Shown here: positions 42,896-64,000 of the stretch, in pieces | Layout: each line of letters begins with the position of its first letter | Numbering within the stretch: position 1 is the first letter of the stretch | IMG/VR virus record: IMGVR_UViG_3300024259_001623 | Reading direction: 5' to 3' (one strand) | Source: a virus | Taxonomy: Duplodnaviria > Caudoviricetes | Length of the DNA stretch: 64,000 nt | Notes under the pieces: model-generated | What the model saw: only the letters and a program-made list of their open reading frames with translations | Told to the model about the DNA's origin: nothing | Databases searched by the model: none | Translations under genes and position numbers: made by a program

Positions 42896-43564
42896 TTAAG
42901 AAATCCTACTTTTAGGGAATCCCCTCTTTTTTCTCTTTGCATAGACTCTTTGATCTAAATGCATATACTTTAGATTCCTCATATAAGAAAAATCTTTACC
43001 AGTATATTCCACCCATGAATGCCTTATAATAACCTGATTAATATATCTACATTTTTTCATTTTCTTTGTTACTTCTGTAAATTCATCATCGCAATAAAAG
43101 CTGGTGTAATCTGGATGATAAATATATCCAAATCTATCATAAAACTTTTTTCCCATTATGGACAACGTATTTAGTCTTTTACCTCTTCTACCATCATTAA
43201 AATGAAGAACTCCATCAGTGTTAGAAAAATACTTTTTCATATTTTTCATAATTATATCGTCATAACCTTTAACTATCGGGATCATATCATCAGAAGCCAA
43301 AAGTAACACATCAAAATCAACATTATCTAGATTTCCATTAATCGCTTCTACTTTATTTCTAAACTTACCATAAAAATATTTTAGATTTTCCTTATTCAAA
43401 AGATATTTTTTCATCTTAATATTATTCATTGAAGGATCATTTTCATTCATAGAAATGATAAACTCATAATCATGTTTACCAGATAAGAACTTATAGTACC
43501 TATCTAAGGTATTTCTGAATTTCTTTTCTCTGAATCTGGTTGGAAATTTTATCAACAATTTCAT
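42896..43564 (-). CDS. GT-A (GT2-like) glycosyltransferase
   Basis: LIKFPTR, KVEAIN, LASDDM (DxD-type), YCDDE, IIRH. Confidence 0.8.
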   Translation of the reverse strand: MKLLIKFPTRFREKKFRNTLDRYYKFLSGKHDYEFIISMNENDPSMNNIKMKKYLLNKENLKYFYGKFRNKVEAINGNLDNVDFDVLLLASDDMIPIVKGYDDIIMKNMKKYFSNTDGVLHFNDGRRGKRLNTLSIMGKKFYDRFGYIYHPDYTSFYCDDEFTEVTKKMKKCRYINQVIIRHSWVEYTGKDFSYMRNLKYMHLDQRVYAKRKKRGFPKSRIS

Positions 43565-44971
43565 TTATGTGACCACCCTATATTTTCTATTATCAAAAAT
43601 TCTCTTATCAGAAGCAAAAATCTTTTTTGCAGCAGGATTAGAGAACTGTGTAGATAAATTGCTATTATTCATTATTTTATTATTCACATATATATAATTA
43701 TCGTTTACCCTGCACCTTTCTATTAAATCTTCATCATGATATATATGTTTATACTGATCAGAAAAAACATATTTATTTTTATTATATGTTCTTCTTCCTA
43801 TACCAATACATTTATCAAAAAAGACTCCATGTTTACTACTCTTAAACTGGATAACTCCTTTTAAATCTGGAAAATGTTTAACAAAACTATTAACAATTAC
43901 TTCATCATAACCCTTTTTTGAAGGAGACATTTTATTATGAGTAGGTATTAATATGTCGAAATCTCTAGTTATATTTGAATTAAATGCATCAGTCTTACTA
44001 GCAAAAGTACCTCGTATTATCTTTATATTTTTAACATAAGAAACATTTTTAATATTAATATTTCTTGATACTCTTCTGTTTTCTATTATCAAATCTATCA
44101 GTATATTATAATTACCAGAAGACAATGATACAAATGGCTTTACGAATTTTTCTATTCTATCTTCTTGTTTCCAAAAATCGATATATATTCTAAATAATAA
44201 AGAAAACTTTTTCTCTTCTATCTTTTTACGAACTGATTTTATAGTTTCTTTTCTGATAGCATTTTCTTTTTGTACTTTTTCTGCATAATTAGATATAGAA
44301 TCTAATGGGAAACCCATTAATACACGTTGTTTAAAAATATTACGATCTTGCTTAAAAAACTTTTCATTTTTTAAATATAAATCATCTGGTTTATATTTTA
44401 TGTTCTTTTCTGGCCCTTTCCAATCATGTTTAAAAATAATCTTATCTATATAGACTGACTTCTTCATCCTTTCAGAAACTCTCTGGAATTCCTCATCACA
44501 ATAAAAACTTGTATAATCTGGATGATAAATATATCCAAATCTATCGTAGTATTTTCTCCCCATTATAGGGAAACTATTTAACTTTATACCCATTCTTCCA
44601 TCATTAAAATGAAGAACCCCATCAGTGTCAGTGAAATACTTTTTCATATTTTTTATAATTACTTCATCATAACCTTTTATTTTGGGAGTCATATCATCAG
44701 AAGCTAAGAGCAATATATCAAAATCAACATTTCCCAGATCACAATTGATAGCTTCAATCTTACTTTTAGAATTTCCATAAAAATATTTTAGATTTTTTTT
44801 ATCTAACATCTTACGTATTTCAAGGTTATTCATAGAACGATCATCAGAATCCATAGATATAATAAATTCCACTTCATTCTTACCAGATAATAAATTCCTA
44901 TATTGACTAAGAATTTTTCTAAATAGTTTCGGTCTTTGTCTAGTTGGAAATTTTATCAAAATCTTCTTCAT
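43565..44971 (-). CDS. Two-domain GT2-like glycosyltransferase (second domain degenerate)
   Basis: N-terminal domain is a close paralog of 42896..43564; the C-terminal domain keeps KTDAFN..DFDILI and F.DLKGVIQF but lacks SDDM. Confidence 0.75.
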   Translation of the reverse strand: MKKILIKFPTRQRPKLFRKILSQYRNLLSGKNEVEFIISMDSDDRSMNNLEIRKMLDKKNLKYFYGNSKSKIEAINCDLGNVDFDILLLASDDMTPKIKGYDEVIIKNMKKYFTDTDGVLHFNDGRMGIKLNSFPIMGRKYYDRFGYIYHPDYTSFYCDEEFQRVSERMKKSVYIDKIIFKHDWKGPEKNIKYKPDDLYLKNEKFFKQDRNIFKQRVLMGFPLDSISNYAEKVQKENAIRKETIKSVRKKIEEKKFSLLFRIYIDFWKQEDRIEKFVKPFVSLSSGNYNILIDLIIENRRVSRNINIKNVSYVKNIKIIRGTFASKTDAFNSNITRDFDILIPTHNKMSPSKKGYDEVIVNSFVKHFPDLKGVIQFKSSKHGVFFDKCIGIGRRTYNKNKYVFSDQYKHIYHDEDLIERCRVNDNYIYVNNKIMNNSNLSTQFSNPAAKKIFASDKRIFDNRKYRVVT

Positions 44972-45864
44972 GATATTATCTCTATTGCTTTATTTACTAT
45001 TATATCGGGTTTTATGTCCCTACATCGCCATCCACATTGCTTCTTATTGTATAACCAAAAGTCAGGTGCTTTCTTCTGGCATGGAGAGCAAGACATTTTC
45101 TTTCTTATTATACTAGTAAATTTATGGAATCTCTGATCATAATTCTTTCCAGGGTTTGTCATAGTATAAATTGCTATGTTATTTTTACATAAAATATTAG
45201 CAATATGATAGGTGCTAGTATCATTAGATATTAATAATTTAGAACCTTTGATAACGCCCATAGAATCCCTCAGATTAAGACCTGTGAGATTAAGGGTTCC
45301 TGGCACATATTCGTCTTTTGATCCAATAGAACCGACTGAGAACCCTCTGGATAGTAGTTTACGGCATAACTCTTTATATCTAGAATAACTCTTACACTCC
45401 CATCTTCTCCTAGCAGCAGAAGAGACTTTGCTATAACCATTATGTACGATAATATCTGGAACATCTATACTTGTCTGCACATGGGAATAAAGATCCTCAT
45501 CAATAGAGAAATCCTCATTTGTATAGCCTGTATCTACAATAGATAAATTATATTCAATTTCAGATACTTTTGTAATATTCTTACAGTGCCTAGAGTTTAG
45601 TATTTTTACATGTTTTAGTGGTTTATCCCATCCACGAGATGTAATAAATTGCCCTGCATAAATAGGTTTATTTATTGGCTCTCCTCTAATAACTATTTCG
45701 TCTGCTATATGCTCAAATAGTATCTTAGTGGGTTTTTTAGTTGTAGGCATAGTGTTATAGACTGTTACAAAATATCCATATTTCTTTTTCAAATATACCA
45801 ATGCAGGGATTGTCTGCACTTGATTTCCTATACCATCTCCTACAATAAATATAATTTTCTTCAT
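44968..45864 (-). CDS. GT9-family glycosyltransferase
   Basis: DGIGNQVQTIPAL, NLTGLNL, ISNDTSTYHIA, CSPCQ. Confidence 0.82.
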   Translation of the reverse strand: MKKIIFIVGDGIGNQVQTIPALVYLKKKYGYFVTVYNTMPTTKKPTKILFEHIADEIVIRGEPINKPIYAGQFITSRGWDKPLKHVKILNSRHCKNITKVSEIEYNLSIVDTGYTNEDFSIDEDLYSHVQTSIDVPDIIVHNGYSKVSSAARRRWECKSYSRYKELCRKLLSRGFSVGSIGSKDEYVPGTLNLTGLNLRDSMGVIKGSKLLISNDTSTYHIANILCKNNIAIYTMTNPGKNYDQRFHKFTSIIRKKMSCSPCQKKAPDFWLYNKKQCGWRCRDIKPDIIVNKAIEIIS

Positions 45865-45866
45865 TC

Positions 45867-47651
45867 TTAACCATGTATGTTGTCATACTCTTTAATAGCT
45901 CTAATGACTCTATCAACGTCTTCTGGATAGTCTACTGCAATAGAAGAATCTGAAACCTCAACCATTTCTATATCATAGCCTAACTCTATAAATCTTAAAA
46001 TCTCTATATCTTCTATAGACTCCAATACAGTTTTTTGCTTACTATTTCCAAAATCAATTAGAGCTTTCTTAGGAAAAGCATAAATACATACTTGCTTCAT
46101 GGCCTTTTTGAATTCTGACTTCTTCGTAGTAGGAATCGGTGCCCTGCTCATAAGTATCATCTCGTTATTTTCCTTAGTGACAACTTTTATAATAGATGGA
46201 TTCCTAAAATCTTCTTCTTTAAAGATTTGGCACATCCCACAATGTACTTTTTCTGGCGATGCGATATGTTTTTCAATCACATTAGTAATATCATCTGGAG
46301 ATATCAGTGGCTCATCCCCCTGGACATTGACAATCAAATCTGCATTTAAATTAAGAGAAGCCTCATAAACCCTGTCTGTGCCTGTCATACATTTATCAGT
46401 TGTCATAATCACCTGTATGCCACGTTCCTCACAGTGATTCTTTATAACCTCATCTTCTGTAGCTACAAACACATTTTCTTTTGGAAGAGCCAAGCAACAT
46501 CTTTCCCAAACTCTCTGTATTAAACTTTTCCCATTTAAATCTACTAAAGACTTCCCAGGAAATCTAGAACTTTTATATCTAGCAGGTATAACTATTTTGA
46601 TATCCATGTCGTAATTTTCCTTTTTATTGCTAAAACCATCCATCATAGCAACACTTAATATATCACCATTGTATTTATTGGAGTTTTCGCTCTTAGATAG
46701 ATTATTAACGCATTTAACTCTTTGAGAATTATTATAACTAACAGAACTCATTATCTCTTGTATATATGTTGGATGTATATCATTCATTGCTGCAATATAA
46801 TATAAAAGACTAGTTCCCCACCCGTATTTCTTCTTCAACTCTTCAAAATCACCCATTACAAGACCAAATATCTCATCTGTTTGATATTTTAAACCCCAGC
46901 CATTATTAAGCTCTATCAAAAAACTTTCAGTGTTAGCATTTCCTGATCCTCTGCCCATTCCCAACATCGTGCCATCTAACCATTCGACACCCAACTCAGA
47001 AGCAGCATAAATTGTATTATCTAAAGCTCTTCCTTTATTATTATGAGCATGTATTCCCAAATCTTTATCCCAGTTGTCTCTTAATATGGCACATATCCTA
47101 TCTAGTTCTTCTTCATCCATAGACCCAAAAGAATCTGCCATATAAAGAACATCAACAGATTCCCAGCTAGATATCATTTTAACCGCATCAGCTATATACG
47201 TTGAATCTTTGCCAGAAATTTGCATGATATTGAATGTAGGCATATAGCCCAACTGCTTCAACTCTTTACAAATAGGTTCACATTGTTCAATTTGATCTAA
47301 ATATGCGCAAATCCTAACAATATCTATAACAGAATCTTCTTTTGGGACAAACAAATCATTTACACATTTTTTTGCCCCTCCCTCATATGTTATGAAATCT
47401 TTTGCATTTATCATGACAGCTTTAGAGCAAGAAGGCAGATTAAGAGTTCTCAAAAAATCTTCTTTACAATAAGCAAACGGTCCTAATTGTTTATCTTTAG
47501 GAGTATACCTGAATCCGATTTCAATAACATCAATCTTAGATTTTTCTATAGCTGCAAAATATTTATTAGCTAAATCAATATCGAAATCCCAGTTATTGTA
47601 GTATCCACCATCTCTGAATGTACAATCCAAAACTTTTATTTTACTTGCCAT
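45867..47651 (-). CDS. kdsB: Fusion: HMGL-like/DmpG-like aldolase + CMP-Kdo synthetase (KdsB-like cytidylyltransferase)
   Basis: VLDCTFRDGGY, HAHNN and GMGRGSGN, then VIPARYKSSRFPGK, TGTDR, NVQGDEP, LESIEDIEILR. Start re-placed to MASKIK (47651, AAGGAG RBS). Confidence 0.85.
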   Translation of the reverse strand: MASKIKVLDCTFRDGGYYNNWDFDIDLANKYFAAIEKSKIDVIEIGFRYTPKDKQLGPFAYCKEDFLRTLNLPSCSKAVMINAKDFITYEGGAKKCVNDLFVPKEDSVIDIVRICAYLDQIEQCEPICKELKQLGYMPTFNIMQISGKDSTYIADAVKMISSWESVDVLYMADSFGSMDEEELDRICAILRDNWDKDLGIHAHNNKGRALDNTIYAASELGVEWLDGTMLGMGRGSGNANTESFLIELNNGWGLKYQTDEIFGLVMGDFEELKKKYGWGTSLLYYIAAMNDIHPTYIQEIMSSVSYNNSQRVKCVNNLSKSENSNKYNGDILSVAMMDGFSNKKENYDMDIKIVIPARYKSSRFPGKSLVDLNGKSLIQRVWERCCLALPKENVFVATEDEVIKNHCEERGIQVIMTTDKCMTGTDRVYEASLNLNADLIVNVQGDEPLISPDDITNVIEKHIASPEKVHCGMCQIFKEEDFRNPSIIKVVTKENNEMILMSRAPIPTTKKSEFKKAMKQVCIYAFPKKALIDFGNSKQKTVLESIEDIEILRFIELGYDIEMVEVSDSSIAVDYPEDVDRVIRAIKEYDNIHG

Positions 47652-48012
47652 TCTTGTCTCCTTTTTCAACATCTTTCAGTAACTTTTGATTTGACTTATA
47701 CACTTCAAGCAATCTAGCCCTTTCCTTTCTCTTCTTGGTATTTTTTTTGATAGTTGACTCATCCATCTTATCAAATAATTTATCTGTATCGAACTTATAT
47801 TCTATCAGCTTATTATTCATCTTCATTCCCATAATAAAAGCTTCTTCCACCAAAGCAACTATTCTTCTACATAGATCTTCATCTTTCTCCAACAATTCTG
47901 TTATACATAGATCATATATCTCTCTATTAACTTCGCAAATAGTTCTTTTTTGATTAGATACTCTTAAACCCTTTTTAGAATTTAATATACTATCTTTTAA
48001 ATCCTTTTTCAT
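47641..48012 (-). CDS. Hypothetical protein
   Basis: 123 aa, overlapping both neighbours. Confidence 0.6.
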   Translation of the reverse strand: MKKDLKDSILNSKKGLRVSNQKRTICEVNREIYDLCITELLEKDEDLCRRIVALVEEAFIMGMKMNNKLIEYKFDTDKLFDKMDESTIKKNTKKRKERARLLEVYKSNQKLLKDVEKGDKNGK

Positions 48013-48671
48013 AACATTTCCTTATAGAAATCCTTGAATACAGTAGGTGTAATAATATTGAAATTTATTCCGTAAAACCATAGATAAGTCAAAGTATTTA
48101 AAACAATATCATCTTTCTTTTTACATTCAGAAAAATTATTTTTATCCGTTAATCCTGACCCATATAAATGCTGACCATTCATATCATCTTTGTTATTAAA
48201 ATAATAAGTATATCCATCCATTCCAACTATATATATATTCTTGCATCCTAATAAATGGGCTATCATAATAGATAAACATCCAGCAGTTCTATAATATCCT
48301 CTTATAACTCCATTCTTAAAACTCATTTGTTCTTTTTCATTATCAGTATATTTTATAAGAACATAATCATTAGAATATTTTCTTCTTATCTTCTCTGGTA
48401 TATTCCGACCGAACATGACTTTAGATTCTTTATGGATATTATCTCCGAAATCTAATAATCTTTGTCTATTAGTCCAAACATGATAGTCTGGTACAATAAA
48501 AGAAGTCATATTATTAATGCCAAATGTTATATCTATTTTATCTTCTATGAATGCTTCTATCTTATCTTTATGACTATTAATAGAAGCCCCTGCTCCTACT
48601 ATCAATGCATTTTTCCCTTTTTCCGTATTTAATATTTTTTGTATAGTTTTCATATTAAAATTTATATCCAA
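48009..48671 (-). CDS. DUF115/MptE-like (Maf-related) domain protein
   Basis: LIVGAGASI, FGINN, PDYHV, TAGCLSIMIAHLLGCKNIYIVGMDG. Confidence 0.7.
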   Translation of the reverse strand: MDINFNMKTIQKILNTEKGKNALIVGAGASINSHKDKIEAFIEDKIDITFGINNMTSFIVPDYHVWTNRQRLLDFGDNIHKESKVMFGRNIPEKIRRKYSNDYVLIKYTDNEKEQMSFKNGVIRGYYRTAGCLSIMIAHLLGCKNIYIVGMDGYTYYFNNKDDMNGQHLYGSGLTDKNNFSECKKKDDIVLNTLTYLWFYGINFNIITPTVFKDFYKEML

Positions 48672-49248
48672 ATAATTCTATATCTTTTTTAACGGCCTTG
48701 TATACCATATCTTTTGTCTTTTTATTATAATATTTTTTATAATTTTTATGTTTGCTTGAATTCATAACTGGCAATTTCTCTTCTATATTAAGCATCGAAC
48801 ATAATTTAGAAAAATCATCATTTAAATCTTCATATCTTCCTATAAAATCTACTATTATATTATCTTTTTTATCTAAAATAAAATCAGACTGCAATTTAGC
48901 TCTTTTTGTTATATGAATTATAAATTCTTCAAAATTCATATTTCTATACATCTTATGTCTTACCTCGTTCAACTTTTTGAAATCGTTACTAGTTCTGTAC
49001 CATGTGTAAAAAGACACAAAACGATCCCAAGGATTTCTTACAAAACAAAATTTGAAATACTTATCAAAATTATCTATTGTTTTTGCGAGTTCTGTAGAAT
49101 TTTTATGTTTACCACCAGGTACAATCATTAATCCTTCTGGTAAAACTTTTACCTCCTGATCTGAATATTTCCTCAAAGCAGTAGATATACTTGTTCCCCC
49201 TGTTCTAGGAATGTGAACAAAAATAGAATTTATTTTTTTAAAAATCAT
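48655..49248 (-). CDS. Sulfotransferase (family 2)
   Basis: FVHIPRTGGTSI, FVRNPWDRFVS, DFIGRYEDL. Confidence 0.9.
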   Translation of the reverse strand: MIFKKINSIFVHIPRTGGTSISTALRKYSDQEVKVLPEGLMIVPGGKHKNSTELAKTIDNFDKYFKFCFVRNPWDRFVSFYTWYRTSNDFKKLNEVRHKMYRNMNFEEFIIHITKRAKLQSDFILDKKDNIIVDFIGRYEDLNDDFSKLCSMLNIEEKLPVMNSSKHKNYKKYYNKKTKDMVYKAVKKDIELFGYKF

Positions 49249-49754
49249 ACTATATCAGTTCTAACTAATTGAGAATTAACAGTATCTAACCCTAACATAT
49301 AACAACATGATGTTCTATGATGCCCCTCGTATATCTCATAACCATCGTTATATTTATTTTCGACAACTGGCTTATTTATTAAAACTATTTCTCCTATAAA
49401 ACCTCTCTTTTTTATGTCTTCATATAAATTGAAAAACGTTTTAATTTTATTAATCGTCCATTTATGATTTTTTCCATATAGCTTATGCATTCTATAATAC
49501 ATGCTTTTTTTGATATTATCAAAAACCTTTTCTTTATTATCTATATAATTACGTAACAAATCACAATGTGGTGATTCACTTATATTTAGAATTTCATTAT
49601 AGTTGCATCCTTTCCTTACAACTTCTCTATATAGTTTGAATCTATCATAATTATACTGGCAATGTATTTTGTCTATTTCTACTGGCAAAATTTCTATATT
49701 AACTAGTTTTACATTTTCTCGCAAAAATTTAGAAAATGGTTTTCTTTTTTTCAT
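49245..49754 (-). CDS. ParB/Srx-like domain protein
   Basis: DIKKRGF...YEIYEGHHR. Confidence 0.55.
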   Translation of the reverse strand: MKKRKPFSKFLRENVKLVNIEILPVEIDKIHCQYNYDRFKLYREVVRKGCNYNEILNISESPHCDLLRNYIDNKEKVFDNIKKSMYYRMHKLYGKNHKWTINKIKTFFNLYEDIKKRGFIGEIVLINKPVVENKYNDGYEIYEGHHRTSCCYMLGLDTVNSQLVRTDIV

Positions 49755-51231: not shown

Positions 51232-51232
51232 C

Positions 51233-54541: not shown

Positions 54542-55118
54542 TACTTTCTCCTAATAATGCACATTTTATCTGTATTATGTAATTCACAACTAACAATATT
54601 GTCAACTACTATATTCTCTATAAACGGTGATACAATTTTGCCATTATCTATATAATCTCTAAAAACATCTACAGTATACGGAACATAGTCTGCTTTTTTC
54701 TTTTTGTGTGTAGATCTTCTATAACATAAAGACCGCCAGGATTCAAACGATCAAACATAGATTGGAATGTAATCTGTTGGTCGTGAGCGGCATGAGAGCC
54801 ATCATCTATGATGATATCAAACTTGATACCCTTAATAACATCTAACTTATGCATTTCATCTTGCCTGCATATACTAGGAATAAAACGATCATTCTTCTTT
54901 TGCCAAAATTTTGATTTTAGAATATCTACTCCATATATAACAGCATTAGGAAAATAATCCAACCACATCTTTATTGATGCTCCCTTATCTATCCCAATTT
55001 CAAGAAGATTCTTTACATCGTTCCTAATAGGATCAAAAAAAAGAGAATATGTCTCAACATAATTATGACCATTACTCCCTTTATCTGTTGAATATTTTTT
55101 AGCCAATTTATTTAACAT
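54541..55118 (-). CDS. Class I SAM methyltransferase split by a -1 frameshift (149 aa unshifted; 192 aa if shifted)
   Basis: STDK, LLEIGI, IIDDGSH, YVIEDL. A-AAA-AAG at 54699-54693 leads into a 50-codon -1 frame ending TAA at 54543-54541, which overlaps the next ATG. Confidence 0.75.
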
Positions 55119-56981: not shown

Positions 56982-57778
56982 TTTCTGATCTCCTTACAGA
57001 AGGATTCAACAATATCTCTTCCTTTATTTTTGAGATGATAGATATAAACATCTTTTCTACCATAATCTTTTAGGTTTGGATCTACATAATTATATGTATC
57101 ACAATTAAATAGACCGATATTATATTCTCCAAACTTATATATTGCTATATCTTTTACACTACGATATTTTTTCGTTAATCTAAAATACTTTAAAACTAAA
57201 GAAGAGAGAAAAACTTGGTCTACCCACCATCTTAAATTCTCTCTCTTCCATGTCTTATGTTTAGGACGATTTTCTTCAAGAGTCCTATATATTGTATCGT
57301 ACTCGGGAAGCGAGTCATCCCCTCCATTTTCCATAGTTTTTATTGCAAAATCACATAATTCATAAGATTTCTTGCTATTTTTACAAAAAATGACTCCCCC
57401 GTTAGAGAAAGCCCTTAACAATCTAGTTTTGATACAATTATTCCGAACCGTGATACCTAAATCAAAATCATTTGCAAATATCTTATTCCAATCTTTATTA
57501 AAAAAAGTATCAAAATCGACAAATGTAGTACCACCGCCATCATAAGATATCTCTTTTTTCAAAACATCGAATTTCAAAAACTGCATTTTATTCTCAAAAA
57601 TATCTTTATCAATATGCTTATGTTCTATATCATGCTGTTTAAGAACCGCTATTTGATCTTCGCTCAAATCTGGAGAATATACTACAAATTCAGCGTCAAC
57701 TTTGTGTCTGGTCAGCAAGAATGGTTTCCCAAACTTAAAATATGCCTTATCAGAGAATGATATAACTTTATTCGCCAT
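56960..57778 (-). CDS. GT-A-like glycosyltransferase
   Basis: FVDFDTFF (DxD), NGGVIF, WWVDQ, YNY, HLK. Confidence 0.65.
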   Translation of the reverse strand: MANKVISFSDKAYFKFGKPFLLTRHKVDAEFVVYSPDLSEDQIAVLKQHDIEHKHIDKDIFENKMQFLKFDVLKKEISYDGGGTTFVDFDTFFNKDWNKIFANDFDLGITVRNNCIKTRLLRAFSNGGVIFCKNSKKSYELCDFAIKTMENGGDDSLPEYDTIYRTLEENRPKHKTWKRENLRWWVDQVFLSSLVLKYFRLTKKYRSVKDIAIYKFGEYNIGLFNCDTYNYVDPNLKDYGRKDVYIYHLKNKGRDIVESFCKEIRKCQKRKS

Positions 57779-58694
57779 ATAGAATCCTTACCATATTATC
57801 ATACGAAGCATCTAAGCTATAATTATCTATAGCACAGCTTCTACACCTATTATGATCGACATTTTTCAACAACCATTCTGAATTTTTTATTAAATTTTTT
57901 CTATCCGTTAAAACGCAGTTATCATTTTTTAAATAATACTTATTATTTGGTGCGTCCTTGTTGTAAACCACAGGCAATCCGCACATTGTCATCTCTAAAA
58001 ATGACTGTGGGAATCCTTCCGCCTTATGTTCAGTAAACAATATCCCAACCTTGGCTCTACTAATGTTGTCTCTGACAAAATCCCCACCAGAGAATGGAGT
58101 ACAAACCACATCATGGATAGAGTCAATTTTATCTTTATGTCTCATACCCCCTATCCACAACACTCTTCTTTTTTCTTTTATCTTGTTCAACTTCTTTATA
58201 AACAGCAATTCATTCTTATCTGCTCTTTTGCCCATCAATAAATAATCGAATTCATCATAATTGCCTACTGGCTTCCAAAAATCTTTGTCTTTGCCTTTAA
58301 ACCATATCTTAGAATTCTTACCCATTCTAGATTTGGAATCTACCAAACTAACATCACAATACTTATTATATAAATTATTTGCACAGCAAGAATAGTAAAC
58401 TTTCTTATTCTTTATATGCCTTAATATCTTTACATCTCTATTTGGATCATTTTTAACAGCCCAAACCATTGCGTCTGGAGACTTATTTATGAAGTTAATA
58501 ACCTTTTGTGGATTTGTCATACTAAATTCCCAGTCTTTATATACTTTTTGATCACTTAAATAAATGATATTACCAAATCTTTCAGCATAAGACCTGTATC
58601 CACAAACAGATCCTCCCTCTATCATCAGTTTCTGGTATTTTTCATTTCTCTTTTTAGTCAACGCACCATACAATAATATCAATTTCTTTTTCAT
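57768..58694 (-). CDS. GT-B (GT4-like) glycosyltransferase
   Basis: EGFPQSFLEMTMCGLPVV. Confidence 0.75.
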   Translation of the reverse strand: MKKKLILLYGALTKKRNEKYQKLMIEGGSVCGYRSYAERFGNIIYLSDQKVYKDWEFSMTNPQKVINFINKSPDAMVWAVKNDPNRDVKILRHIKNKKVYYSCCANNLYNKYCDVSLVDSKSRMGKNSKIWFKGKDKDFWKPVGNYDEFDYLLMGKRADKNELLFIKKLNKIKEKRRVLWIGGMRHKDKIDSIHDVVCTPFSGGDFVRDNISRAKVGILFTEHKAEGFPQSFLEMTMCGLPVVYNKDAPNNKYYLKNDNCVLTDRKNLIKNSEWLLKNVDHNRCRSCAIDNYSLDASYDNMVRILYGE

Positions 58695-58709: not shown

Positions 58710-59624
58710 TTATTTACTAAATAACGATACCATCTTGCCCATATTAGTTTTTCTATCGCCGATCTTATTGTTAAGCAAATCAACCATTTCTCCATTCAGC
58801 TTAACTCTTTCATCTTCATCTGTCATCAAACGTTTAACATAAGAAGCAGCCTCTTTAAGCTCTCTGGCGGCATACACAAGCGACGTTCTACCATTTATAG
58901 AGTAATCTCCCATTCCTGCTTTTTTATGGTCTGTGCTGACCAAGGCACAGCCAGCTAAAGATGACTCCATAGGAGGATTATGTAGACCCTCTAATTCGGT
59001 TGGAGATATCCAAACTTTAATTCTATTATACCATTTATTAAGTTTCTTTTCGTCCGGATTTTTAATATCCTTATTCAAAAGTACAATCTTATATCCAGCA
59101 TGTTTGGCTATCTTGATAGCATCAACATGTCTTTTAGTTGCATGTCTTTCGCTATACAAGGCTCCAACAATATTTTCTCTCTCTTGACCCATATTATAAA
59201 ATTTGTCTATATCTAGGCCAGGATATACTAGATCAGAATGTATACCATTTTTCTTTAGATGACTGTGTAACCATTCACTATTAACAACGCAATGTAACTT
59301 ACTGTATGAATCGAATAATTGTTTTTTTGTAGCTTTCCACGTTTCATATCCTCTGATATAGTAAAACTTCTTATCAGCCGGTGTCTCTAAAGTATTTTGA
59401 ACGCTTTCAAGACCAGTAGCAACAACAACATCACATTTAGGACATTTTTGACCGGGCACAAAATCTATGCCTATTGGTTTATGCCAACTATATCCACTTT
59501 TAACATTACTGAACATTATAACTTCATGACCAAGAGAACTCAAAGTTTCTCCGCACTTCAACAATGTTCTACTTCCGCCATTATTACCAAGCCCAACATT
59601 AAATAAATTAAATGCTATTTTCAT
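58710..59624 (-). CDS. GT-B (GT4-like) glycosyltransferase
   Basis: NNGGSR, YYIRGYE, EGLHNPPMESSLAGCALV. Confidence 0.8.
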   Translation of the reverse strand: MKIAFNLFNVGLGNNGGSRTLLKCGETLSSLGHEVIMFSNVKSGYSWHKPIGIDFVPGQKCPKCDVVVATGLESVQNTLETPADKKFYYIRGYETWKATKKQLFDSYSKLHCVVNSEWLHSHLKKNGIHSDLVYPGLDIDKFYNMGQERENIVGALYSERHATKRHVDAIKIAKHAGYKIVLLNKDIKNPDEKKLNKWYNRIKVWISPTELEGLHNPPMESSLAGCALVSTDHKKAGMGDYSINGRTSLVYAARELKEAASYVKRLMTDEDERVKLNGEMVDLLNNKIGDRKTNMGKMVSLFSK

Positions 59625-60316
59625 TTTATAACCTTCCCCATCTTTCTTATTGATTTTACTTTATCTTCGGACAATACTATTTCAGTCTTTTTATCTTTGA
59701 TACCATCAAAATATCTTAGTCCACACATAATCCTACCATTGAAATCCCAAGGATCCCTGGTAGATATAACTCTCTTTATGTATTCGGCATCTCCATCAAA
59801 ATCACCAATCCATTTATAAATGTTATTTACAAAATTGAAAGGGTCTGAAATGATATCTTCATATTTGACAACTATACTTTCTGTTTTATCTATTTTAATA
59901 GTTTTATAAACCTTTGGAACATTATTAAAATAAGTTTTGATACATAAATTCACATCTTTTTCAAATGTTCTTACTTGTGAATTTATAGCAGACAACGGAT
60001 CTCTTATAATATGTATAACATGAAACTTTTTGAATAGTTTCTTGAACTTAGCGAAATATAGATCAAAATCTCTGGCAAAAACATATGGAAGTTTTTGACC
60101 AGCCTTAATAGACATCATTCCACCAGTTTCTTGTTTATTTTGAGTAACTGGATATGTCATATTCTTTATGGCCCATTGGCGTGTTTGAGCTTTCAACAAT
60201 AAGTCTCTTCTCTCATGTACTATATCATAACCCAAAGCCGGATGCATAGAAACTAATCTTCTTAATAATGTAGTGCCTGATCGTTCATATCCCGTGATCA
60301 ATATTCGTTTTTTCAT
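59621..60316 (-). CDS. Sulfotransferase
   Basis: ITGYERSGTTLL, IHIIRDP, VKYEDIISDP. Confidence 0.85.
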   Translation of the reverse strand: MKKRILITGYERSGTTLLRRLVSMHPALGYDIVHERRDLLLKAQTRQWAIKNMTYPVTQNKQETGGMMSIKAGQKLPYVFARDFDLYFAKFKKLFKKFHVIHIIRDPLSAINSQVRTFEKDVNLCIKTYFNNVPKVYKTIKIDKTESIVVKYEDIISDPFNFVNNIYKWIGDFDGDAEYIKRVISTRDPWDFNGRIMCGLRYFDGIKDKKTEIVLSEDKVKSIRKMGKVIK

Positions 60317-61317
60317 AATATGCTTTCTATAATGTTGATTAAATGATCAGAAGCTTGATCTAAACTTAAATGCTTCTCGTAATAGTCTCTTGTATTTATT
60401 CTAGATAAACTATGAATATTATTATCTAACGCTTGTTTTAAATGGTCGCTTGTACCTTTTACCAACATCCCTGTATTCACATTGATATATTTATTTTGCC
60501 AAAAATTTATATTCTTAGTCGCAATAACAGGTATTCCGCAAGCCAAGTATTCGGGTATAACTCTTGGACAAGAATCATAATTGGTTGAACAACATATACC
60601 AACTTTACATTGACTTATTTTTTGGGGTAGTTCTTTTCTTAATGACCAGCCTCCCCATTCTATATTAGTTTTCAACTCTCTAGCCATTCTAACATATTTT
60701 TTATTAGTATTTCCTAAACTAAGGATTCTATATTTAGATTTAGAAAAAGCTTTAATAAGCATCTCATGCCTTTTTATTTCGCCCTGAGTTGCATTTGCCA
60801 TAAAACAGATATCATACTTCTTTTTAGTTTCAACAGGCTTAAAAAGCATAGCAGCAGGCTTTATGAACAGTTCTGCTCTTTTATGCTTATCTTTTTCTAT
60901 TATATTCTTTTGTCTCTTAGAATCTACGATAAACACATCATAATCTTTAAATGAACTGTTAGGAAATGATCTTACACCGGCTCCATAATATATTTTTTTA
61001 GCTTTAGGAAACTTTTTAACAACATTGTCATAATAAGAAAATCCCCCTCTACAGAAAATCAAATCAGGGGAGAATGGAACAAAATCATGTGAAAAGTTTT
61101 TGAAAGACGGAATCCATTGCTCTTTGAAATTATCATCAACAACAAATTCTCTATCTCCATTTACATAAAGAATTCTACCATTAGACTCCATTTTTTTATT
61201 GATAAAATAGAATAATTGAGTCCACATATCCTCGCAATTCTCTATTGAATCATAATACAGCTTTTCAGGATGTTCGTTTTTAGGCGGAACAGACCCTCTC
61301 AAAAATAAAATATTCAT
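60313..61317 (-). CDS. GT-B (GT4-like) glycosyltransferase
   Basis: DSCPRVIPEYLACGIPVI. Confidence 0.8.
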   Translation of the reverse strand: MNILFLRGSVPPKNEHPEKLYYDSIENCEDMWTQLFYFINKKMESNGRILYVNGDREFVVDDNFKEQWIPSFKNFSHDFVPFSPDLIFCRGGFSYYDNVVKKFPKAKKIYYGAGVRSFPNSSFKDYDVFIVDSKRQKNIIEKDKHKRAELFIKPAAMLFKPVETKKKYDICFMANATQGEIKRHEMLIKAFSKSKYRILSLGNTNKKYVRMARELKTNIEWGGWSLRKELPQKISQCKVGICCSTNYDSCPRVIPEYLACGIPVIATKNINFWQNKYINVNTGMLVKGTSDHLKQALDNNIHSLSRINTRDYYEKHLSLDQASDHLINIIESIL

Positions 61318-61318
61318 A

Positions 61319-62017
61319 TTATATCCTATAAGATCTCAAATATTCATTATAAACATCTTTCGGTGTTATCTCTTCCATATACATATCTATTTCGTCTATT
61401 TGTTTCTGATCCAATGTTTTTGCATGATAAGAAAAATCTAATACATTGTCTTTTGTATAAGATTTATTCGTTTTGTCATACTTAGCGATAGATTTTTTTC
61501 TATGACATTCTAGATCAAACTTTTTTGATGAGCGCTTTATCTTAATAAAATCAAGTATCTTCTCCATTTCGGAGAAATCTTTAATAAGGTCTTCATATCT
61601 AACAAGAATTTTATCTCCTGCGAAATTATGATATGCTTTAAGATTTGATACGTACTCACTCATCCTGCTTTTATCCATTTTCGCAGCACGTACATAAGAC
61701 TCTCTATAATCTCTCAATAACAAAACCATTTTAGAGAAAACCTGACGCCCTTCTTCATCATAAAAATTGCATCCCTCATACCCATGAATGTCACGATTCT
61801 TATATCTATCAATATCTCGATATTGTTCCAAATCAAAACAATCAACATTATGAGTTCTCTGTATAATAGGGTGTCCGAACTTAATTAAACGAAATTTGCC
61901 TGGCGTTCTTTGATTGGAGAATAACTCTATACAGTATCTAACCCAATTTAAACCTGATCTTCTAAAAGATACCAAAACTACTCTATCATCATGTTTATCA
62001 CTCAAATTATTTTTCAT
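61319..62017 (-). CDS. Sulfotransferase-like protein
   Basis: VSFRRSGLNW, LLLRDYRESY, VRYEDL. Confidence 0.75.
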   Translation of the reverse strand: MKNNLSDKHDDRVVLVSFRRSGLNWVRYCIELFSNQRTPGKFRLIKFGHPIIQRTHNVDCFDLEQYRDIDRYKNRDIHGYEGCNFYDEEGRQVFSKMVLLLRDYRESYVRAAKMDKSRMSEYVSNLKAYHNFAGDKILVRYEDLIKDFSEMEKILDFIKIKRSSKKFDLECHRKKSIAKYDKTNKSYTKDNVLDFSYHAKTLDQKQIDEIDMYMEEITPKDVYNEYLRSYRI

Positions 62018-62794
62018 TTATAATATTCCCCAAGCCTTTTCATTAGCAACTACAAAAGAATTATTTCCTGATCTTCTCATTTTTCTTTTATTATTTAATC
62101 TTTTTTCATTCTCTGTCCTGTGAGCCGTAGCCAATTTATTAATTTTGAATATAGGATGCCATTGATGTAAAATAGCAGTTTTTGTATGTAACCATTTTAT
62201 ACTAAGCCCATAACTTCTAGCCCTAAAAACCATATCATTGTCCATACCGCCCCACATAGCTAATTTTTCATCGTACCCTCTAACTTTCTTAAACCAAGAA
62301 GTATTTGTAAACTGACAAGCTCCATTGGCAGAATTTTTGCCAAAAAATCTTCCTTTTTTGTTCAATCCATCAAAATCTCTCATAGAAAATTCTTTTACAT
62401 CATCTTTCTTGCCCAGCATATGAACTTTACATAATAACATATATTTCTTGTGTTTTTCCTTCCACAAAGTAGATATGAAATTTTTCTTAAATATATAATC
62501 AACATCAGTACACATAGTATACTTAGATTTAGATCTCTTTATACCTATATTAAGACCTTGTGACTTATTCCAAATTTTACCTCTCATTTTTTTATATATA
62601 TGATTAGCATCATATTTAGCACATAAATCATTTACTTTTGTAAAAGAAGAATCATTACTGATGTCTACAATCATAATTTCAGGAGAAATATCGCTATCCT
62701 GGTTCCTGATAGAATATAAAAAATTATTTAATCTACAAGCCCCTCTATTACCAATATTATGAACAAAACAAATTATAGATAGCTCATTCGCCAT
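62018..62794 (-). CDS. GT2 glycosyltransferase with GT7-C-like motif
   Basis: KSQGLNIGI, TDVDY, GYDE...WGGMDND, HQWH. Confidence 0.85.
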   Translation of the reverse strand: MANELSIICFVHNIGNRGACRLNNFLYSIRNQDSDISPEIMIVDISNDSSFTKVNDLCAKYDANHIYKKMRGKIWNKSQGLNIGIKRSKSKYTMCTDVDYIFKKNFISTLWKEKHKKYMLLCKVHMLGKKDDVKEFSMRDFDGLNKKGRFFGKNSANGACQFTNTSWFKKVRGYDEKLAMWGGMDNDMVFRARSYGLSIKWLHTKTAILHQWHPIFKINKLATAHRTENEKRLNNKRKMRRSGNNSFVVANEKAWGIL

Positions 62795-63611
62795 TTCTTA
62801 CCTTCTTTCCTGACATATTATAATTTAATTCCTTATATTCTACATATATTCTATTTTTCTTTTTTAAAGTTACATAATCTTTATTTTGTTTAACTTTATA
62901 CGAGGCAGAAAACAACCTATTCTTAACACTAATTGCTCCCTTATACGCTTTTTCATGCATCTTTATATACTCTTCGCTTTGATATGCATCATAGAAATTA
63001 TTTTCATCATTAAGACCTGCTCTACAGCATCTCATAGAATAATCTGTATGTCCTCCACCACACATCCCCATGTTCGCAACATCGATATATCCTACTTTCT
63101 CAATAGTCCTTGGAGTAAAAGTCCAAAAACAACCAAAAGCGTCACAAACTCCTCTTACTAGGCATTGTATTGATTTATCTGGATCAAGAATAAGCTTTTT
63201 TCTTATGGTATATTTAGGTCTATACTTTTTTGTCCAACGCAAATTAAAGAAACATAAATGATCATAGCCAGATTTCTGCATTGCTCTTACATACAAATCA
63301 TCCCAACCATTTCTACTAAACAAAACATCATCATCTGCCATAAAACCAAAATCAAAACCCATATCATATGATTCTTTCATCATCTTATTCTTTTGAAAAT
63401 GGACTCCTCTCCTCTGATTCTTAAATACTATAACATTATCGTATTTAGACTGTAACCTATCGCAGTATTCAAGAGTACCATCTATTGAACCATCATCAGC
63501 TATCATAACAGTCCAATCATGATCATTATTTTTACTATCATTCCAAGAAGAAAAAATAGCCTTCAAATATTTCAGTCTATTATATGTTGTTATTCCTAAA
63601 ACTAATTTCAT
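62784..63611 (-). CDS. GT2 glycosyltransferase
   Basis: ITTYNR, IADDGSIDGT, ADDD, VGYID. Confidence 0.88.
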   Translation of the reverse strand: MKLVLGITTYNRLKYLKAIFSSWNDSKNNDHDWTVMIADDGSIDGTLEYCDRLQSKYDNVIVFKNQRRGVHFQKNKMMKESYDMGFDFGFMADDDVLFSRNGWDDLYVRAMQKSGYDHLCFFNLRWTKKYRPKYTIRKKLILDPDKSIQCLVRGVCDAFGCFWTFTPRTIEKVGYIDVANMGMCGGGHTDYSMRCCRAGLNDENNFYDAYQSEEYIKMHEKAYKGAISVKNRLFSASYKVKQNKDYVTLKKKNRIYVEYKELNYNMSGKKVRNGE

Positions 63612-64000
63612 TTATTCAATCCCATATCTTATCTTAATAGGCCCTGGATGCTCTCCAGTAAATCTTTTTGTTTTCCCTCCGCGAACGGTAGGATGAACAC
63701 TATGCTTCAATTCTACAAGCTTTCTGTTATCATCCCATCTCTTCCATACATTCTTATACCATAAAAGCAAATCTCTTCTCTTGAATAATTTACTATAATA
63801 ATATATCTTCTCTCTTACTTGTTTATCCAAAACATATGAATAATGATACATAAATGTTTTATTATCTCCAGCAAATAATGGTCTTATCTTTTTGACATTC
63901 CTGCCTTTGTTATCCAGAATAGTAGGAGGTATTTTTTCTCCTCTTCCACTTTGGAACAACGAACCTTTATAATATTTGAATATTCTAGGTATTGGAGTAT
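63612..64000 (-). CDS. C-terminal part of a probable glycosyltransferase (starts beyond window)
   Basis: The frame stays open from the track's TTG at 63959 to the window edge (TPIPRIFKYYKGSLFQSG...); HYSYV motif. Confidence 0.6.
   Translation of the reverse strand, partial: TPIPRIFKYYKGSLFQSGRGEKIPPTILDNKGRNVKKIRPLFAGDNKTFMYHYSYVLDKQVREKIYYYSKLFKRRDLLLWYKNVWKRWDDNRKLVELKHSVHPTVRGGKTKRFTGEHPGPIKIRYGIE

Follow-up and report, generated by a model that had tools for sequence, protein, structure and literature searches.

Why would a phage carry a long, unbroken run of glycan-building genes, and onto what would their product be placed? The window analysed here, a 64,000-nt stretch of a 434,625-bp phage-like contig from an uncultivated marine phage, ends inside such a run. 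We catalogued its genes, followed it beyond the window, searched for relatives and weighed the possible acceptors of the glycan.

Extent and gene content of the island

The run is a dense, one-directional array. The ORF listing of positions 42896–64000 gives 27 minus-strand genes, 26 complete and one cut by the window end (Table 1). The sequence-only reading had counted 25; its description of them as co-directional and mostly abutting or overlapping stands, with the sole sizeable gap at 54541–54669. The tally of 13 glycosyltransferase (GT)-like proteins, five sulfotransferase-fold proteins, four methyltransferases and one each of an RmlB-like dehydratase, an aldolase-KdsB fusion and a DUF115/Maf-like transferase matches its counts (about 12, 5, 4, 1, 1 and 1). 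A ParB/Srx-fold protein and a 123-aa protein without a family match complete the set. Pfam left the 123-, 169-, 222-, 224-, 272-, 280-, 284- and 468-aa proteins without a match; homologs, structure or motifs placed all of these except the 123-aa one. All five sulfotransferase-fold proteins carry PAPS-binding motifs.

In gene tables of this contig the island runs on to about 75866, which gives ~33 kb and ~44 genes in all. The ~11.9 kb past the window end adds 17 genes, including further GT2, radical SAM, NeuB, NeuA, HAD and DUF115 genes, before a UvrD helicase marks the boundary. RNA-repair, topoisomerase and clamp-loader genes lie on the other side, and the neighbourhood is not a structural block. 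The whole island encodes ~20 soluble transferases (17 GT-like, 3 DUF115). Outside the island, only about three glycan-type genes occur in the window, so this clustering is far beyond chance.

The island carries enzymes for assembly and none for export. Over all 33 kb, neither Pfam searches nor the contig gene tables turned up a flippase, polymerase, exporter or initiating transferase; the PGT, Wzx, Wzy and ABC families are absent. The lack of flippase, Wzy/Wzz, ABC exporter and initiating transferase noticed from the letters is thereby borne out, and the flank between 64000 and the UvrD helicase, where export or polymerase genes might have been waiting, has none. Nor is the contig cellular, the other possibility that had been left standing; it is viral. 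No 19-residue window in the island proteins reaches a Kyte-Doolittle value of 1.6 (maximum 1.52, against 2.38 for the positive control WaaL and more than 2 for several non-island genes of the window), in agreement with the reported lack of membrane segments.

Individual assignments support an acid-sugar supply. The aldolase-KdsB fusion scores 281.5 bits against the NCBIfam KdsB model PRK13368 (cut-off 255), and its aldolase half resembles PDB 3DXI, a "putative aldolase" (1e-45), with DxxRDG and HxH motifs aligned. In every relative the DUF115 gene keeps its place next to the aldolase and the ParB/Srx gene, and its product has no sequence match in the PDB. Genes for sulfation, methylation and ulosonic-acid supply are thus all found in the island, as had been proposed, and support its identification as a phage-encoded soluble, export-less glycan assembly line.

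Table 1. Island genes within the window, with the evidence for each assignment
Position	Strand	Product	Evidence
42896..43564	-	GT-A glycosyltransferase, phage-specific family, 222 aa, last island gene	No Pfam match; 57% identical to N-terminal half of adjoining 468-aa protein; family by Atlas features and structure, clusters Uroviricota
43565..44971	-	Tandem double GT-A glycosyltransferase, 468 aa	Both halves match 222-aa protein (blastp); residues 1-227 vs viral "glycosyltransferase family protein" models (Atlas), TM 0.90-0.96 by target
44968..45864	-	GT9 (heptosyltransferase family)	Pfam PF01075, E 6.9e-10, 39 bits (cut-off 22); PDB matches to WaaF/WaaC weak only
45867..47672	-	HMGL-like (DRE-TIM) aldolase + KdsB-type CMP-ulosonate synthetase fusion	HMGL-like 5.9e-21; CTP_transf_3 1.7e-42
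47641..48012	-	Charged, helical protein, 123 aa	No Pfam or NCBIfam match; weak homolog in G006 module
48009..48671	-	DUF115/MptE-like (Maf-type), candidate CMP-ulosonate transferase	Pfam PF01973, 39.6 bits (cut-off 34.6)
48655..49248	-	Carbohydrate-type sulfotransferase, Sulfotransfer_2	Pfam 1.7e-17; PAPS-binding motifs HIPRTGGTS, RNPWDR
49245..49754	-	ParB/Srx-fold nucleotide-binding protein, 169 aa	GHHR motif; AlphaFold pLDDT 78; top Foldseek matches all ParB-CTP, sulfiredoxin or serine kinase, at E of merely 2e-3
49751..50590	-	Sulfotransferase, Sulfotransfer_2	Pfam 1.2e-6; motifs VHIQKTSGSS, LRDPIQR
50581..51231	-	SAM methyltransferase, Methyltransf_11	Pfam 4.1e-10; conserved core
51233..51853	-	FkbM-type methyltransferase	Pfam PF05050, 3e-10; conserved core
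51855..52490	-	TOD1/MUCI70 (DUF616) glycosyltransferase-like	Pfam PF04765, 8.8e-18; conserved core
52480..53040	-	Methyltransferase, Methyltransf_24	Pfam 7.5e-13; conserved core
53040..53882	-	Divergent GT2 (A4), 280 aa, phage-restricted family, core-module marker	Homolog annotation
53867..54541	-	GT-A-fold glycosyltransferase, 224 aa, paralog beyond window	EDDW motif invariant in alignment; model pTM 0.73; Foldseek best SpsA, then TarP, RmlT, probability 1.0
54669..55118	-	Short methyltransferase, Methyltransf_24, 149 aa	Pfam 4.2e-6; homologs in relatives 205-210 aa; identical sequence in independent assembly
55124..55978	-	Sulfotransferase-fold protein, 284 aa	Motifs RRSGHH, LRDLP; Atlas structure TM 0.65-0.72 to Sulfotransfer_1/3 clusters
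55980..56981	-	NDP-sugar 4,6-dehydratase, RmlB-like SDR	Pfam GDP_Man_Dehyd 2e-43; TIGR01181 272 bits, below equivalog cut-off 365
56960..57778	-	GT-A glycosyltransferase, Nucleotid_trans/GT8-like, 272 aa	Atlas features 0.97, structure TM 0.6-0.72; conserved core
57768..58694	-	GT4 glycosyltransferase GT4a	Pfam Glyco_trans_1_4, 5e-6
58710..59624	-	GT4 glycosyltransferase GT4b, first conserved-core gene	Pfam 3.5e-6
59621..60316	-	Sulfotransferase, Sulfotransfer_3/1	Pfam 7.2e-15; motifs YERSGTT, IRDP
60313..61317	-	GT4 glycosyltransferase GT4c	Pfam Glycos_transf_1, 3.2e-12
61319..62017	-	Sulfotransferase, Sulfotransfer_1	Pfam 4.1e-8; motifs FRRSGLN, LRDYR
62018..62794	-	GT2 glycosyltransferase + Glyco_transf_7C region	Pfam; 50%-identical paralog beyond window
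62784..63611	-	GT2 glycosyltransferase	Pfam 6.6e-13
63612..64000	-	3' part of 281-aa GT2-like gene, cut by window end	Full gene L001:4690-5535; faint PF00535

A conserved core in other phages

Part of the island is an order-conserved cassette shared with other phages. A core of ~16 kb (GT4-GT4-GT8-like-MT-GT-A-GT2-MT-FkbM-DUF616-ParB/Srx-DUF115-aldolase/KdsB-GT4-GT9) recurs in at least nine other viral contigs, counted as L060, a 32-kb contig (L062/L010) and eight IMG/VR loci, seven of them distinct. Core proteins share 25–55% amino-acid identity with their counterparts in these contigs, and GT4a is the best conserved (1e-82 to 1e-111). Sulfotransferases, GT2s, RmlB and NeuB/NeuA vary between relatives; we regard the sulfotransferases, the additional GT2s, RmlB and the Kdn-type branch as additions made to the conserved phage cassette in particular lineages. 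A sister island places CysNC and CysD, for PAPS synthesis, beside its aldolase-KdsB fusion.

The core occupies a structural, late-gene position in smaller phages. Three carriers (L067, L069 and L070), one a complete 61-kb phage, have it directly after TerL and portal, with GT4b immediately following the portal gene. In the DTR-complete phage G006 (60,954 bp), the module spans 32.3–48.2 kb between the portal (30366–31931) and major head protein (50725–51666) genes, and tail-spike and minor-tail genes follow. The G006 module also holds a 3-TM protein without an explained role. Module genes are all that G006 has in common with the window, which indicates that unrelated phage lineages have exchanged the cassette and retained it.

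The core GT2 family A4 has 81 homologs and is present at eight IMG/VR loci; PF00535 is detected in 4 of the 81, and some are named glycosyltransferase. Among 802 sampled Pseudomonadota and Bacteroidota genomes it yielded merely five weak partial matches, and the Atlas clusters of several further island GT families contain Uroviricota alone. Simple copying of a host O-antigen locus therefore does not account for the island.

Bacterial and viral comparison systems

Bacterial flagellin O-glycosylation islands combine Maf/DUF115 with a NeuB-type synthase and a CMP-synthetase, and methylation and other tailoring are common in them. The phage island resembles them in its proposed cytoplasmic, carrier-free logic of protein O-glycosylation, in which CMP-activated nonulosonic acids are moved by DUF115/Maf, but it has no flagellin, and its DUF115 protein is only a distant relative. 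In Pseudomonas, the DUF115 genes tied to aldolase-KdsB lie in LPS-core (waa) clusters and do not adjoin flagellin. These clusters share the island's ulosonate sub-module (aldolase, KdsB-type synthetase, DUF115) and its GT9 and GT4 neighbours; unlike them, the island lacks WaaA, WaaP, carbamoyltransferase and WaaL, and its fusion is not immediately followed by a HAD gene. Identity between the phage and Pseudomonas-type loci is 36–40%, and other cellular homologs reach ~47%.

Megavirinae offer a viral parallel. Their fibril/capsid glycosylation clusters comprise 9–12 genes in Mimivirus, 12 in Moumouvirus australiensis and 21 in Cotonvirus, and those of Moumouvirus and Cotonvirus include a sulfotransferase and SAT/APS kinase (PMC10117803), akin to the island's sulfotransferases and the sister island's CysNC/CysD. 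Both systems unite virus-encoded soluble GTs, sugar-nucleotide enzymes and methyltransferases without lipid-carrier or export machinery. The island, however, belongs to a tailed phage with a bacterial host, uses different enzyme families, is larger (~44 genes, ~20 transferases, 5 sulfotransferases) and adds ulosonic/nonulosonic acids, which are not reported for the Megavirinae clusters. Virion attachment is shown in Mimivirus, whereas for the island we infer it. In mycobacteriophages, phage-encoded GTs glycosylate the capsid and tail-tube subunits in the cytoplasm (Freeman et al. 2023, as cited in PMC12619734), an experimentally shown precedent for the proposed mechanism. Those systems differ from the island in having few GTs, of unrelated families, and are not known to include enzymes for sugar-acid synthesis, sulfation or methylation.

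Phage clusters of a related kind are known from cyanomyoviruses. P-SSM2 has a 24-gene "LPS / cell-wall synthesis and modification" cluster (PMC1079782), and S-SCSM2R a 22-gene cluster with KdsA/KdsB and 13 GTs, the stated record (PMC12801897); jumbo phages carry capsule clusters, and Iyer et al. describe surface-modifying clusters as sporadic and polymorphic (PMC7824862). Like the island, the cyanomyovirus clusters occur in marine lytic phages, contain many GTs, epimerases and KdsB, lack flippase and polymerase, and are putative in function. The island differs in being a contiguous 33-kb block whose transferases exceed that record, in its five sulfotransferases, four methyltransferases and DUF115 transferases, in using an aldolase-KdsB fusion instead of KdsA, and in having a conserved core, which small phages carry in their structural block, rather than being sporadic and polymorphic.

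The acceptor of the glycan

The reading we favour, at a probability of about 0.58, is that the glycan is placed on virion proteins (capsid, fibres or tail) as particles assemble. Host nucleotide sugars and CMP-ulosonic acids made by the phage, through the aldolase-KdsB fusion and through NeuB/NeuA, would be added stepwise by the GTs to the acceptor in the cytoplasm. A DUF115/Maf-type enzyme would transfer the CMP-activated acid sugar, and the glycan would then be O-methylated from SAM and O-sulfated from host PAPS. Export would not be needed, since particles form in the cytoplasm and are released when the cell lyses.

Genomic context adds new support for the virion target named in the sequence-only reading, although the acceptor is still one that we infer. 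The placement of the conserved core in a complete 61-kb phage, with the portal gene on one side and the major head protein gene on the other, favours it, as do the lack of TM segments and of PGT, Wzx, Wzy and ABC families, the retention of the cassette in unrelated phages, the scarcity of family A4 in the sampled bacterial genomes, the CysNC/CysD genes of the sister island, and the Megavirinae and mycobacteriophage precedents. The window also encodes a 619-aa Ser/Gly-rich repeat protein (Ser+Thr 23%, window median 10%) after which come a GT9-like gene, a sulfotransferase confirmed by Pfam and a further, sulfotransferase-like gene recognised by motifs only. This protein, which has no PHROG or Pfam match and just one homolog, is a candidate fibre by composition and repeats only, and together with the adjoining glycan genes it counts for virion glycosylation. 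Counting against are the location of the huge-phage island outside a structural block, the cellular aldolase-KdsB-HAD-DUF115 homologs in Pseudomonas LPS-core clusters, and the 3-TM protein of the G006 module.

Those Pseudomonas homologs make remodelling of host LPS the main rival, a less likely one. The soluble enzymes would modify host lipid A-core or Und-PP-linked intermediates on the cytoplasmic side of the inner membrane, and the altered LPS, LOS or capsule would be exported by host MsbA, Wzx or ABC systems, blocking superinfection or keeping progeny off debris. GT9 and KdsB belong to the classic enzyme families of the LPS core, and LPS-core enzymes are soluble, TM-less and dependent on host MsbA; their GTs work without a dedicated flippase. 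An export-less island with GT9, GT4 and KdsB fits this pattern, so the earlier argument from missing export genes against a cell-surface glycan is not decisive. Moreover, 12 Pseudomonas-type loci hold aldolase, KdsB, HAD and DUF115 within the LPS-core cluster (GT9, WaaG, WaaP, carbamoyltransferase, WaaL), not beside flagellin or Wzx. Envelope remodelling is also the usual interpretation of cyanophage "LPS" clusters. The published clusters of P-SSM2 (PMC1079782), S-SCSM2R (PMC12801897) and jumbo phages (PMC7824862) have been interpreted as acting on the host surface. Yet WaaA, WaaP and WaaL are missing from the island, core order is conserved across divergent phages where surface-modifying clusters are "sporadic and polymorphic" (PMC7824862), the core lies between portal and capsid genes in the complete 61-kb phage, its marker GT family went essentially undetected in the 802 sampled bacterial genomes, and ~20 transfer steps go far beyond what receptor masking needs.

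It is doubtful that sub-modules serve different targets, for instance the core modifying virion proteins while accessory GT2s, sulfotransferases and the Kdn branch act on host surface or secreted material, or that the acceptor is a non-virion phage or host protein. The split into a conserved core and variable sulfotransferases, GT2s, RmlB and NeuB/NeuA is modular, and the presence of three DUF115 transferases and a pair of ulosonate pathways points to more than a single glycan; but the tight co-directional packing, with overlapping stops and starts, suggests co-expression, and a second acceptor has no positive evidence. DNA glycosylation, in which hydroxymethylated bases of the phage DNA would carry the glycan made by the GTs, is unlikely, with a probability close to nil. 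Phage GTs able to hypermodify DNA are reported (10.1101/2023.12.21.572611), and the GT2 at 62784..63611 matches TAGT at E 0.0014; this sole trace of the hypermodified-DNA target once entertained is sub-threshold (19 bits, cut-off 27.5) and expected of any GT-A protein. The island genes scanned include no hydroxymethylase, TET/JBP or base-kinase gene, known DNA systems use 1–3 GTs rather than ~20 with sulfotransferases, NeuB and KdsB, and the homologous module in small phages belongs to a head-gene block. Virion glycosylation remains our preferred reading: the virus particle is most likely coated by a complex acidic sugar layer.

Extent and gene content of the glycan island

The island encodes a very large set of soluble enzymes, with no export machinery among them, for building, methylating and sulfating a glycan that includes CMP-activated acid sugars. 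Window ORFs lie on the minus strand throughout, at a GC fraction near 0.30-0.33. An ORF listing of the island part gave 26 complete genes and one cut at the window end, nearly all abutting or overlapping by a few bases. Pfam recognised a GT9 protein, an HMGL-like aldolase-CTP_transf_3 fusion, a DUF115/MptE-like protein, four sulfotransferases, four methyltransferases, a TOD1/MUCI70 (DUF616) protein, an RmlB-like dehydratase, three GT4 proteins and two GT2 proteins. By NCBIfam, the KdsB half of the fusion scored above the KdsB subfamily cut-off (281.5 versus 255 bits), and the dehydratase resembles dTDP-glucose 4,6-dehydratase with a score below the equivalog cut-off.

Eight island genes had no Pfam match, seven of which were resolved by other means. 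One phage-specific GT-A family takes in both the 222-aa protein and the 468-aa protein, the latter a tandem double; the 272-aa protein is GT8/Nucleotid_trans-like and the 280-aa protein a divergent GT2. A GT-A fold is predicted for the 224-aa protein (best match SpsA), a sulfotransferase fold for the 284-aa protein (Atlas structure) and a ParB/Srx fold for the 169-aa protein, which carries a GHHR motif and whose fold match is consistent but weak. The final tally in the window is 13 GT-like proteins, five sulfotransferases, four methyltransferases, and one each of dehydratase, fusion, DUF115, ParB/Srx and unknown. The sequence-only reading, which had counted about 12 GT-like proteins, five sulfotransferases and four methyltransferases, was essentially right.

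Coordinates of the features discussed (nucleotides unless stated)
Sequence	Position	Strand	Feature
Window	42896-64000	minus	Island, part within the window
Contig of the window	42896 to about 75866		Whole island, by coordinate transfer
Window	45867-47672	minus	Aldolase-KdsB fusion gene
Window	48009-48671	minus	DUF115 gene
Window	53040-53882	minus	280-aa GT2 gene
Window	54541-54669		Sole real gap in the island (128 nt)
Window	54541-55118 (region)	minus	Methyltransf_24 gene
Window	54693-54699		Proposed -1 frameshift
Window	110-4479	minus	tRNA-His guanylyltransferase, DNA methyltransferase and Q_salvage genes
Window	15190-21062	minus	Fibre-like protein and second glycan unit
L029 (Pseudomonas nitroreducens)	9947-13911		Aldolase, KdsB-type synthetase, HAD and DUF115 genes
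L062 (sister island)	11450-11950		166-aa kinase-like protein
L010 (sister island)	12395-15066		CysN/CysC fusion and CysD
L069 (roughly 76-kb phage)	44-18475		Paralogs with a shared N terminus
L070 (module locus of G006)	11696-12925		Two predicted membrane proteins
G006 (complete phage genome)	39309-40538		The same two proteins
G006	about 32.3-48.2 kb		Module

Public-assembly gene tables for the same 434,625-bp contig, on which the fusion protein is also recorded, show the island running past position 64000. The order there is GT2, two unknowns (one a paralog of the 224-aa GT-A protein), GT2, radical SAM, GT2, four small genes, HAD, NeuB, two small genes, a NeuA-like cytidylyltransferase, an unknown, DUF115, GT2 and DUF115, followed by a UvrD helicase. 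Of these genes NeuB alone, whose sequence was read from L007, runs on the opposite strand. The outermost five genes (302 aa, NeuA-like 240 aa, two MptE-like, GT2 194 aa) are described from precomputed Pfam entries in the gene tables rather than from sequence. Coordinate transfer puts the whole island at 33 kb and about 44 genes, flanked by UvrD on one side and RlaP/topoisomerase on the other, with no adjoining structural genes.

Elsewhere the window has genes typical of large phages, among them those for a clamp loader, a sliding clamp, topoisomerase I, a CCA-adding enzyme and tRNA-His guanylyltransferase. Grouped with the guanylyltransferase are a DNA methyltransferase and a Q_salvage (queuosine salvage) protein, the latter of which could link to tRNA or 7-deazaguanine metabolism. 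A second glycan unit follows a 619-aa Ser/Gly/Cys-rich protein with about 13 GxGSxAxG-type repeats that is beta-helix- or adhesin-head-like, belongs to no PHROG or Pfam family and has one homolog only. After it come a weak GT9-like gene, a gene for 208 aa that is sulfotransferase-like by its motifs alone, and an unambiguous Sulfotransfer_3 gene; PDB sequence searches returned nothing relevant for the GT9-like protein.

The window holds no match to TCCCTGA-N12-AATTGT, a candidate phage-specific early promoter, and in a sigma-70 and terminator scan promoter predictions were no better than shuffles. The Methyltransf_24 gene that precedes the island's only sizeable gap encodes just 149 aa, against 205-210 aa in homologs from two module-bearing contigs, L060 and L066. 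An independent assembly (L001) has the same sequence, which rules out an assembly error as the cause of the short form. When the longer L060 homolog was used in tblastn across a proposed -1 frameshift, no continuation in another frame was found.

No export genes appear in the island, and no membrane segments in those of its proteins whose sequence was read. Among the 27 window and 17 flank genes we found no Bac_transf or Glycos_transf_4 match that would indicate a WecA- or WbaP-type initiating phosphoglycosyl transferase, and no Polysacc_synt, Wzy_C, ABC_tran or ABC2_membrane match for Wzx, Wzy, an ABC exporter or a chain-length regulator. Maximum Kyte-Doolittle hydrophobicity over 19 residues was 1.52 for window island genes and at most 1.32 for flank genes whose sequence was read, compared with 2.38 for a WaaL control; no island protein reaches 1.6, and other window genes exceed 2. 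By gene content the island is not a Wzx/Wzy- or ABC-dependent O-antigen or capsule locus. Nor does it match a waa-type LPS-core cluster: it shares GT9, GT4 and KdsB-type domains with LPS-core loci and has no WaaA, WaaP kinase or WaaL, and the WaaA (Glycos_transf_N), Kdo and Wzy_C families, none of them in the island, were all found in a Pseudomonas comparison locus. The export-free block proposed from sequence alone thus holds across the island, the gene tables placing no export genes just past 64000, and the contig is viral.

The island core is a conserved phage cassette

The core recurs in the same order in divergent phages. Searching with a profile built from the 280-aa GT2 proteins recovered eight IMG/VR loci, seven of them distinct, and every one carried the core as GT4b - GT4a - GT8-like - MT - GT-A224 - GT2(280) - MT24 - FkbM - DUF616 - ParB/Srx - DUF115 - (aldolase, KdsB) - GT4c - GT9. 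Twelve island genes also keep their order, at 25-55% identity, on L060 (DAOVGR010000028.1; 54.5 kb, GC 28%), a contig labelled as a Thermoplasmatales archaeon MAG and probably phage DNA that was mis-binned. The 32-kb ENA contig L062/L010 is a sister island of glycan genes from end to end: GT2, GT9, GT4, sulfotransferases, methyltransferases, DUF616 and NeuB, with a ParB/Srx-DUF115-sulfotransferase-fusion-HAD-CysNC-CysD run and a 69-aa DUF2061 as its single hydrophobic protein. It also encodes a 166-aa protein whose catalytic loop (HNDIKP ... DFG) resembles that of protein kinases or WaaP and which may phosphorylate sugars or glycans.

In smaller phages the core is linked to structural genes, unlike the island in the huge phage. 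In three loci (L067, L069, L070) it starts immediately downstream of the genes for the terminase large subunit and the portal. One of these, L070, belongs to G006, a record of 60,954 bp that carries direct terminal repeats and is estimated to be 100% complete, in which the module takes up 26% of the genome between the portal and major head protein genes, with tail-spike and minor-tail genes following. G006 and the window have only module genes in common, which indicates a cassette shared between unrelated phage lineages.

The core is nearly confined to viral sequence. Among 802 sampled Pseudomonadota and Bacteroidota genomes, the 280-aa family gave five weak, partial matches, and Atlas clusters of several island GTs are entirely viral. 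INPHARED phages gave no DNA match to the window, no protein match for the 222-aa GT-A or 280-aa GT2 proteins and generic KdsB matches only. Neither an exact-pattern search for the window's own contig nor a protein scan for the fusion gave a match in viral_contigs, and a scan of metagenome_contigs for a flank GT2 was likewise empty.

In L069 the first 25 residues (MPTLYRTDGTxIDSSNKLSLxELV) are almost identical in at least six paralogs, which are interspersed with glycan genes and match pentapeptide-repeat-like PHROGs without known function. The G006 module contains predicted membrane proteins of 166 aa (one TM) and 219 aa (three TM), neither with a Pfam family or a counterpart in the huge phage's island.

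Sulfotransferases and a proposed aldolase-KdsB route to acid sugars

All five island sulfotransferases, four assigned by Pfam and the fifth by its predicted Atlas structure, keep the 5'-PSB loop (K/R-T/S-G-x-x) and the 3'-PB motif (R-D/N-P or similar). Sulfotransferase homologs occur at varying positions in seven of the eight IMG/VR module loci (six of seven distinct). The sister island makes its own PAPS: next after its aldolase-KdsB fusion and HAD come a CysN/CysC fusion and CysD; no CysN/CysC or CysD-type gene was seen in the window. Our literature search found no report of phage sulfotransferases.

Acid-sugar activation is encoded by the fusion and by flank genes. The fused aldolase retains the DRE-TIM metal and substrate motifs in an alignment with PDB 3DXI, and by precomputed Pfam NeuB and a CTP_transf_3 protein lie 8-10 kb past the window end. 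The DUF115 protein scores 39.6 bits against a PF01973 cut-off of 34.6, two more DUF115 genes are listed faintly in the flank, and no match to solved structures was found. Maf-type protein O-glycosylation islands combine a DUF115 transferase and a NeuB-type synthase plus CMP-sugar synthetase, all present here, with a neighbouring gene for flagellin or another defined acceptor; no flagellin family occurs among the scanned island and window genes.

The aldolase-KdsB architecture is widespread in cells. It has 3,477 matches at E <= 1e-10, many from Tara samples, and occurs in genomes of Pseudomonas, Colwellia, Vibrio, Pelagibacteraceae, Prochlorococcus and Cytophagales. By analogy with KdsA-KdsC-KdsB, the route would run from aldol condensation to a phosphorylated 3-deoxy-2-ulosonate, through dephosphorylation, to CMP activation, an order suggested by the HAD phosphatase directly after the module in 45 of 51 cellular loci. 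A link of the cellular module to flagellin was rejected. In 12 Pseudomonas-type loci, where neither flagellin nor Wzx adjoins the module, among them that of P. nitroreducens, it and DUF115 sit inside an LPS-core (waa) cluster, between GT9, GT4, WaaG, WaaP and carbamoyltransferase genes and WaaL; this insertion looks like an uncharacterised ulosonic-acid branch of core oligosaccharide synthesis. Our literature search found no paper on the aldolase-cytidylyltransferase fusion.

The probable glycan acceptor and its consequences

Virion proteins are the favoured acceptor, with a probability of about 0.58. Several observations argue for them: in small phages the core stands between the genes for portal and capsid, its order is kept across divergent phages, it is nearly restricted to viral sequence, and virion assembly in the cytoplasm needs no export. 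The virus itself encodes soluble GTs and sugar-activating enzymes independent of a lipid carrier, and the repeat protein in the window is followed by a GT9-like gene and two sulfotransferase genes, one Pfam-confirmed and one motif-only. Giant viruses (PMC10117803) and mycobacteriophages (PMC12619734) supply experimental precedents. Remodelling of host LPS or LOS is a serious rival, if an unlikely one, and its best evidence is the Pseudomonas aldolase-KdsB-DUF115 module. Gene context there suggests that the DUF115-linked acid sugar goes to the LPS core in cells, so protein glycosylation cannot be assumed from DUF115. As to whether the island GT9 is a protein (TibC/AAH) or an LPS heptosyltransferase, PDB searches gave marginal WaaC/WaaF matches only. 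A mixed or other acceptor is less probable still. Glycosylation of DNA, which had been floated from sequence alone, is very improbable: the island genes scanned include no base hydroxymethylase, TET/JBP dioxygenase or base kinase, and a TAGT match falls below its cut-off.

With virion proteins as acceptor, a broader reading can be put forward tentatively, at somewhat less than even odds. The core would be a phage-specific, horizontally moving cassette that gives marine tailed phages of 61 kb to 434 kb a virion glycocalyx on capsid or fibre proteins, methylated, bearing ulosonic acids and, in most lineages, sulfated.

Phage glycan clusters as such are already known. P-SSM2 has 24 'LPS' genes (PMC1079782); S-SCSM2R has 22 genes with 13 GTs, a count presented as possibly the highest of any marine phage (PMC12801897); capsule and LPS clusters of jumbo phages have been interpreted as anti-superinfection devices (PMC7824862); and Moraphages have four core GT families (PMC12619734). 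Giant-virus fibril clusters, some with sulfotransferase and SAT/APS kinase (PMC10117803), are by analogy the closest functional counterpart. The island differs in uniting some 44 genes, about 20 of them for transferases, in a single block, and in its five sulfotransferases, its aldolase-KdsB/DUF115 route and a conserved, transferable core that lies in the structural block of small phages.

If these readings are right, the product would be the first sulfated glycoconjugate from a bacterial virus, and the aldolase-KdsB route, with thousands of bacterial homologs and apparently uncharacterised, would be an undescribed CMP-ulosonic-acid pathway, from class II aldolase through KdsB-type synthetase to DUF115 transferase, that bacteria use in LPS cores too. 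Together with the aldolase-KdsB route, the five compact soluble carbohydrate sulfotransferases (predicted) and several phage-only GT-A families are enzymes of practical interest, and the 280-aa GT2 family is a simple marker for finding cultivable phages in which to test the hypothesis. A glycan on the particle would extend complex virion glycosylation beyond giant eukaryotic viruses and a few mycobacteriophages. In marine phages it would then be a trait both conserved and costly, its genes occupying 26% of a 61-kb genome and 33 kb of a 434-kb one. Such a sulfated, methylated, acidic coat would alter particle adhesion to mucus, marine gels, algal surfaces and non-host cells, and would affect their resistance to grazers, nucleases and proteases and their contribution to dissolved organic sulfur and carbon.
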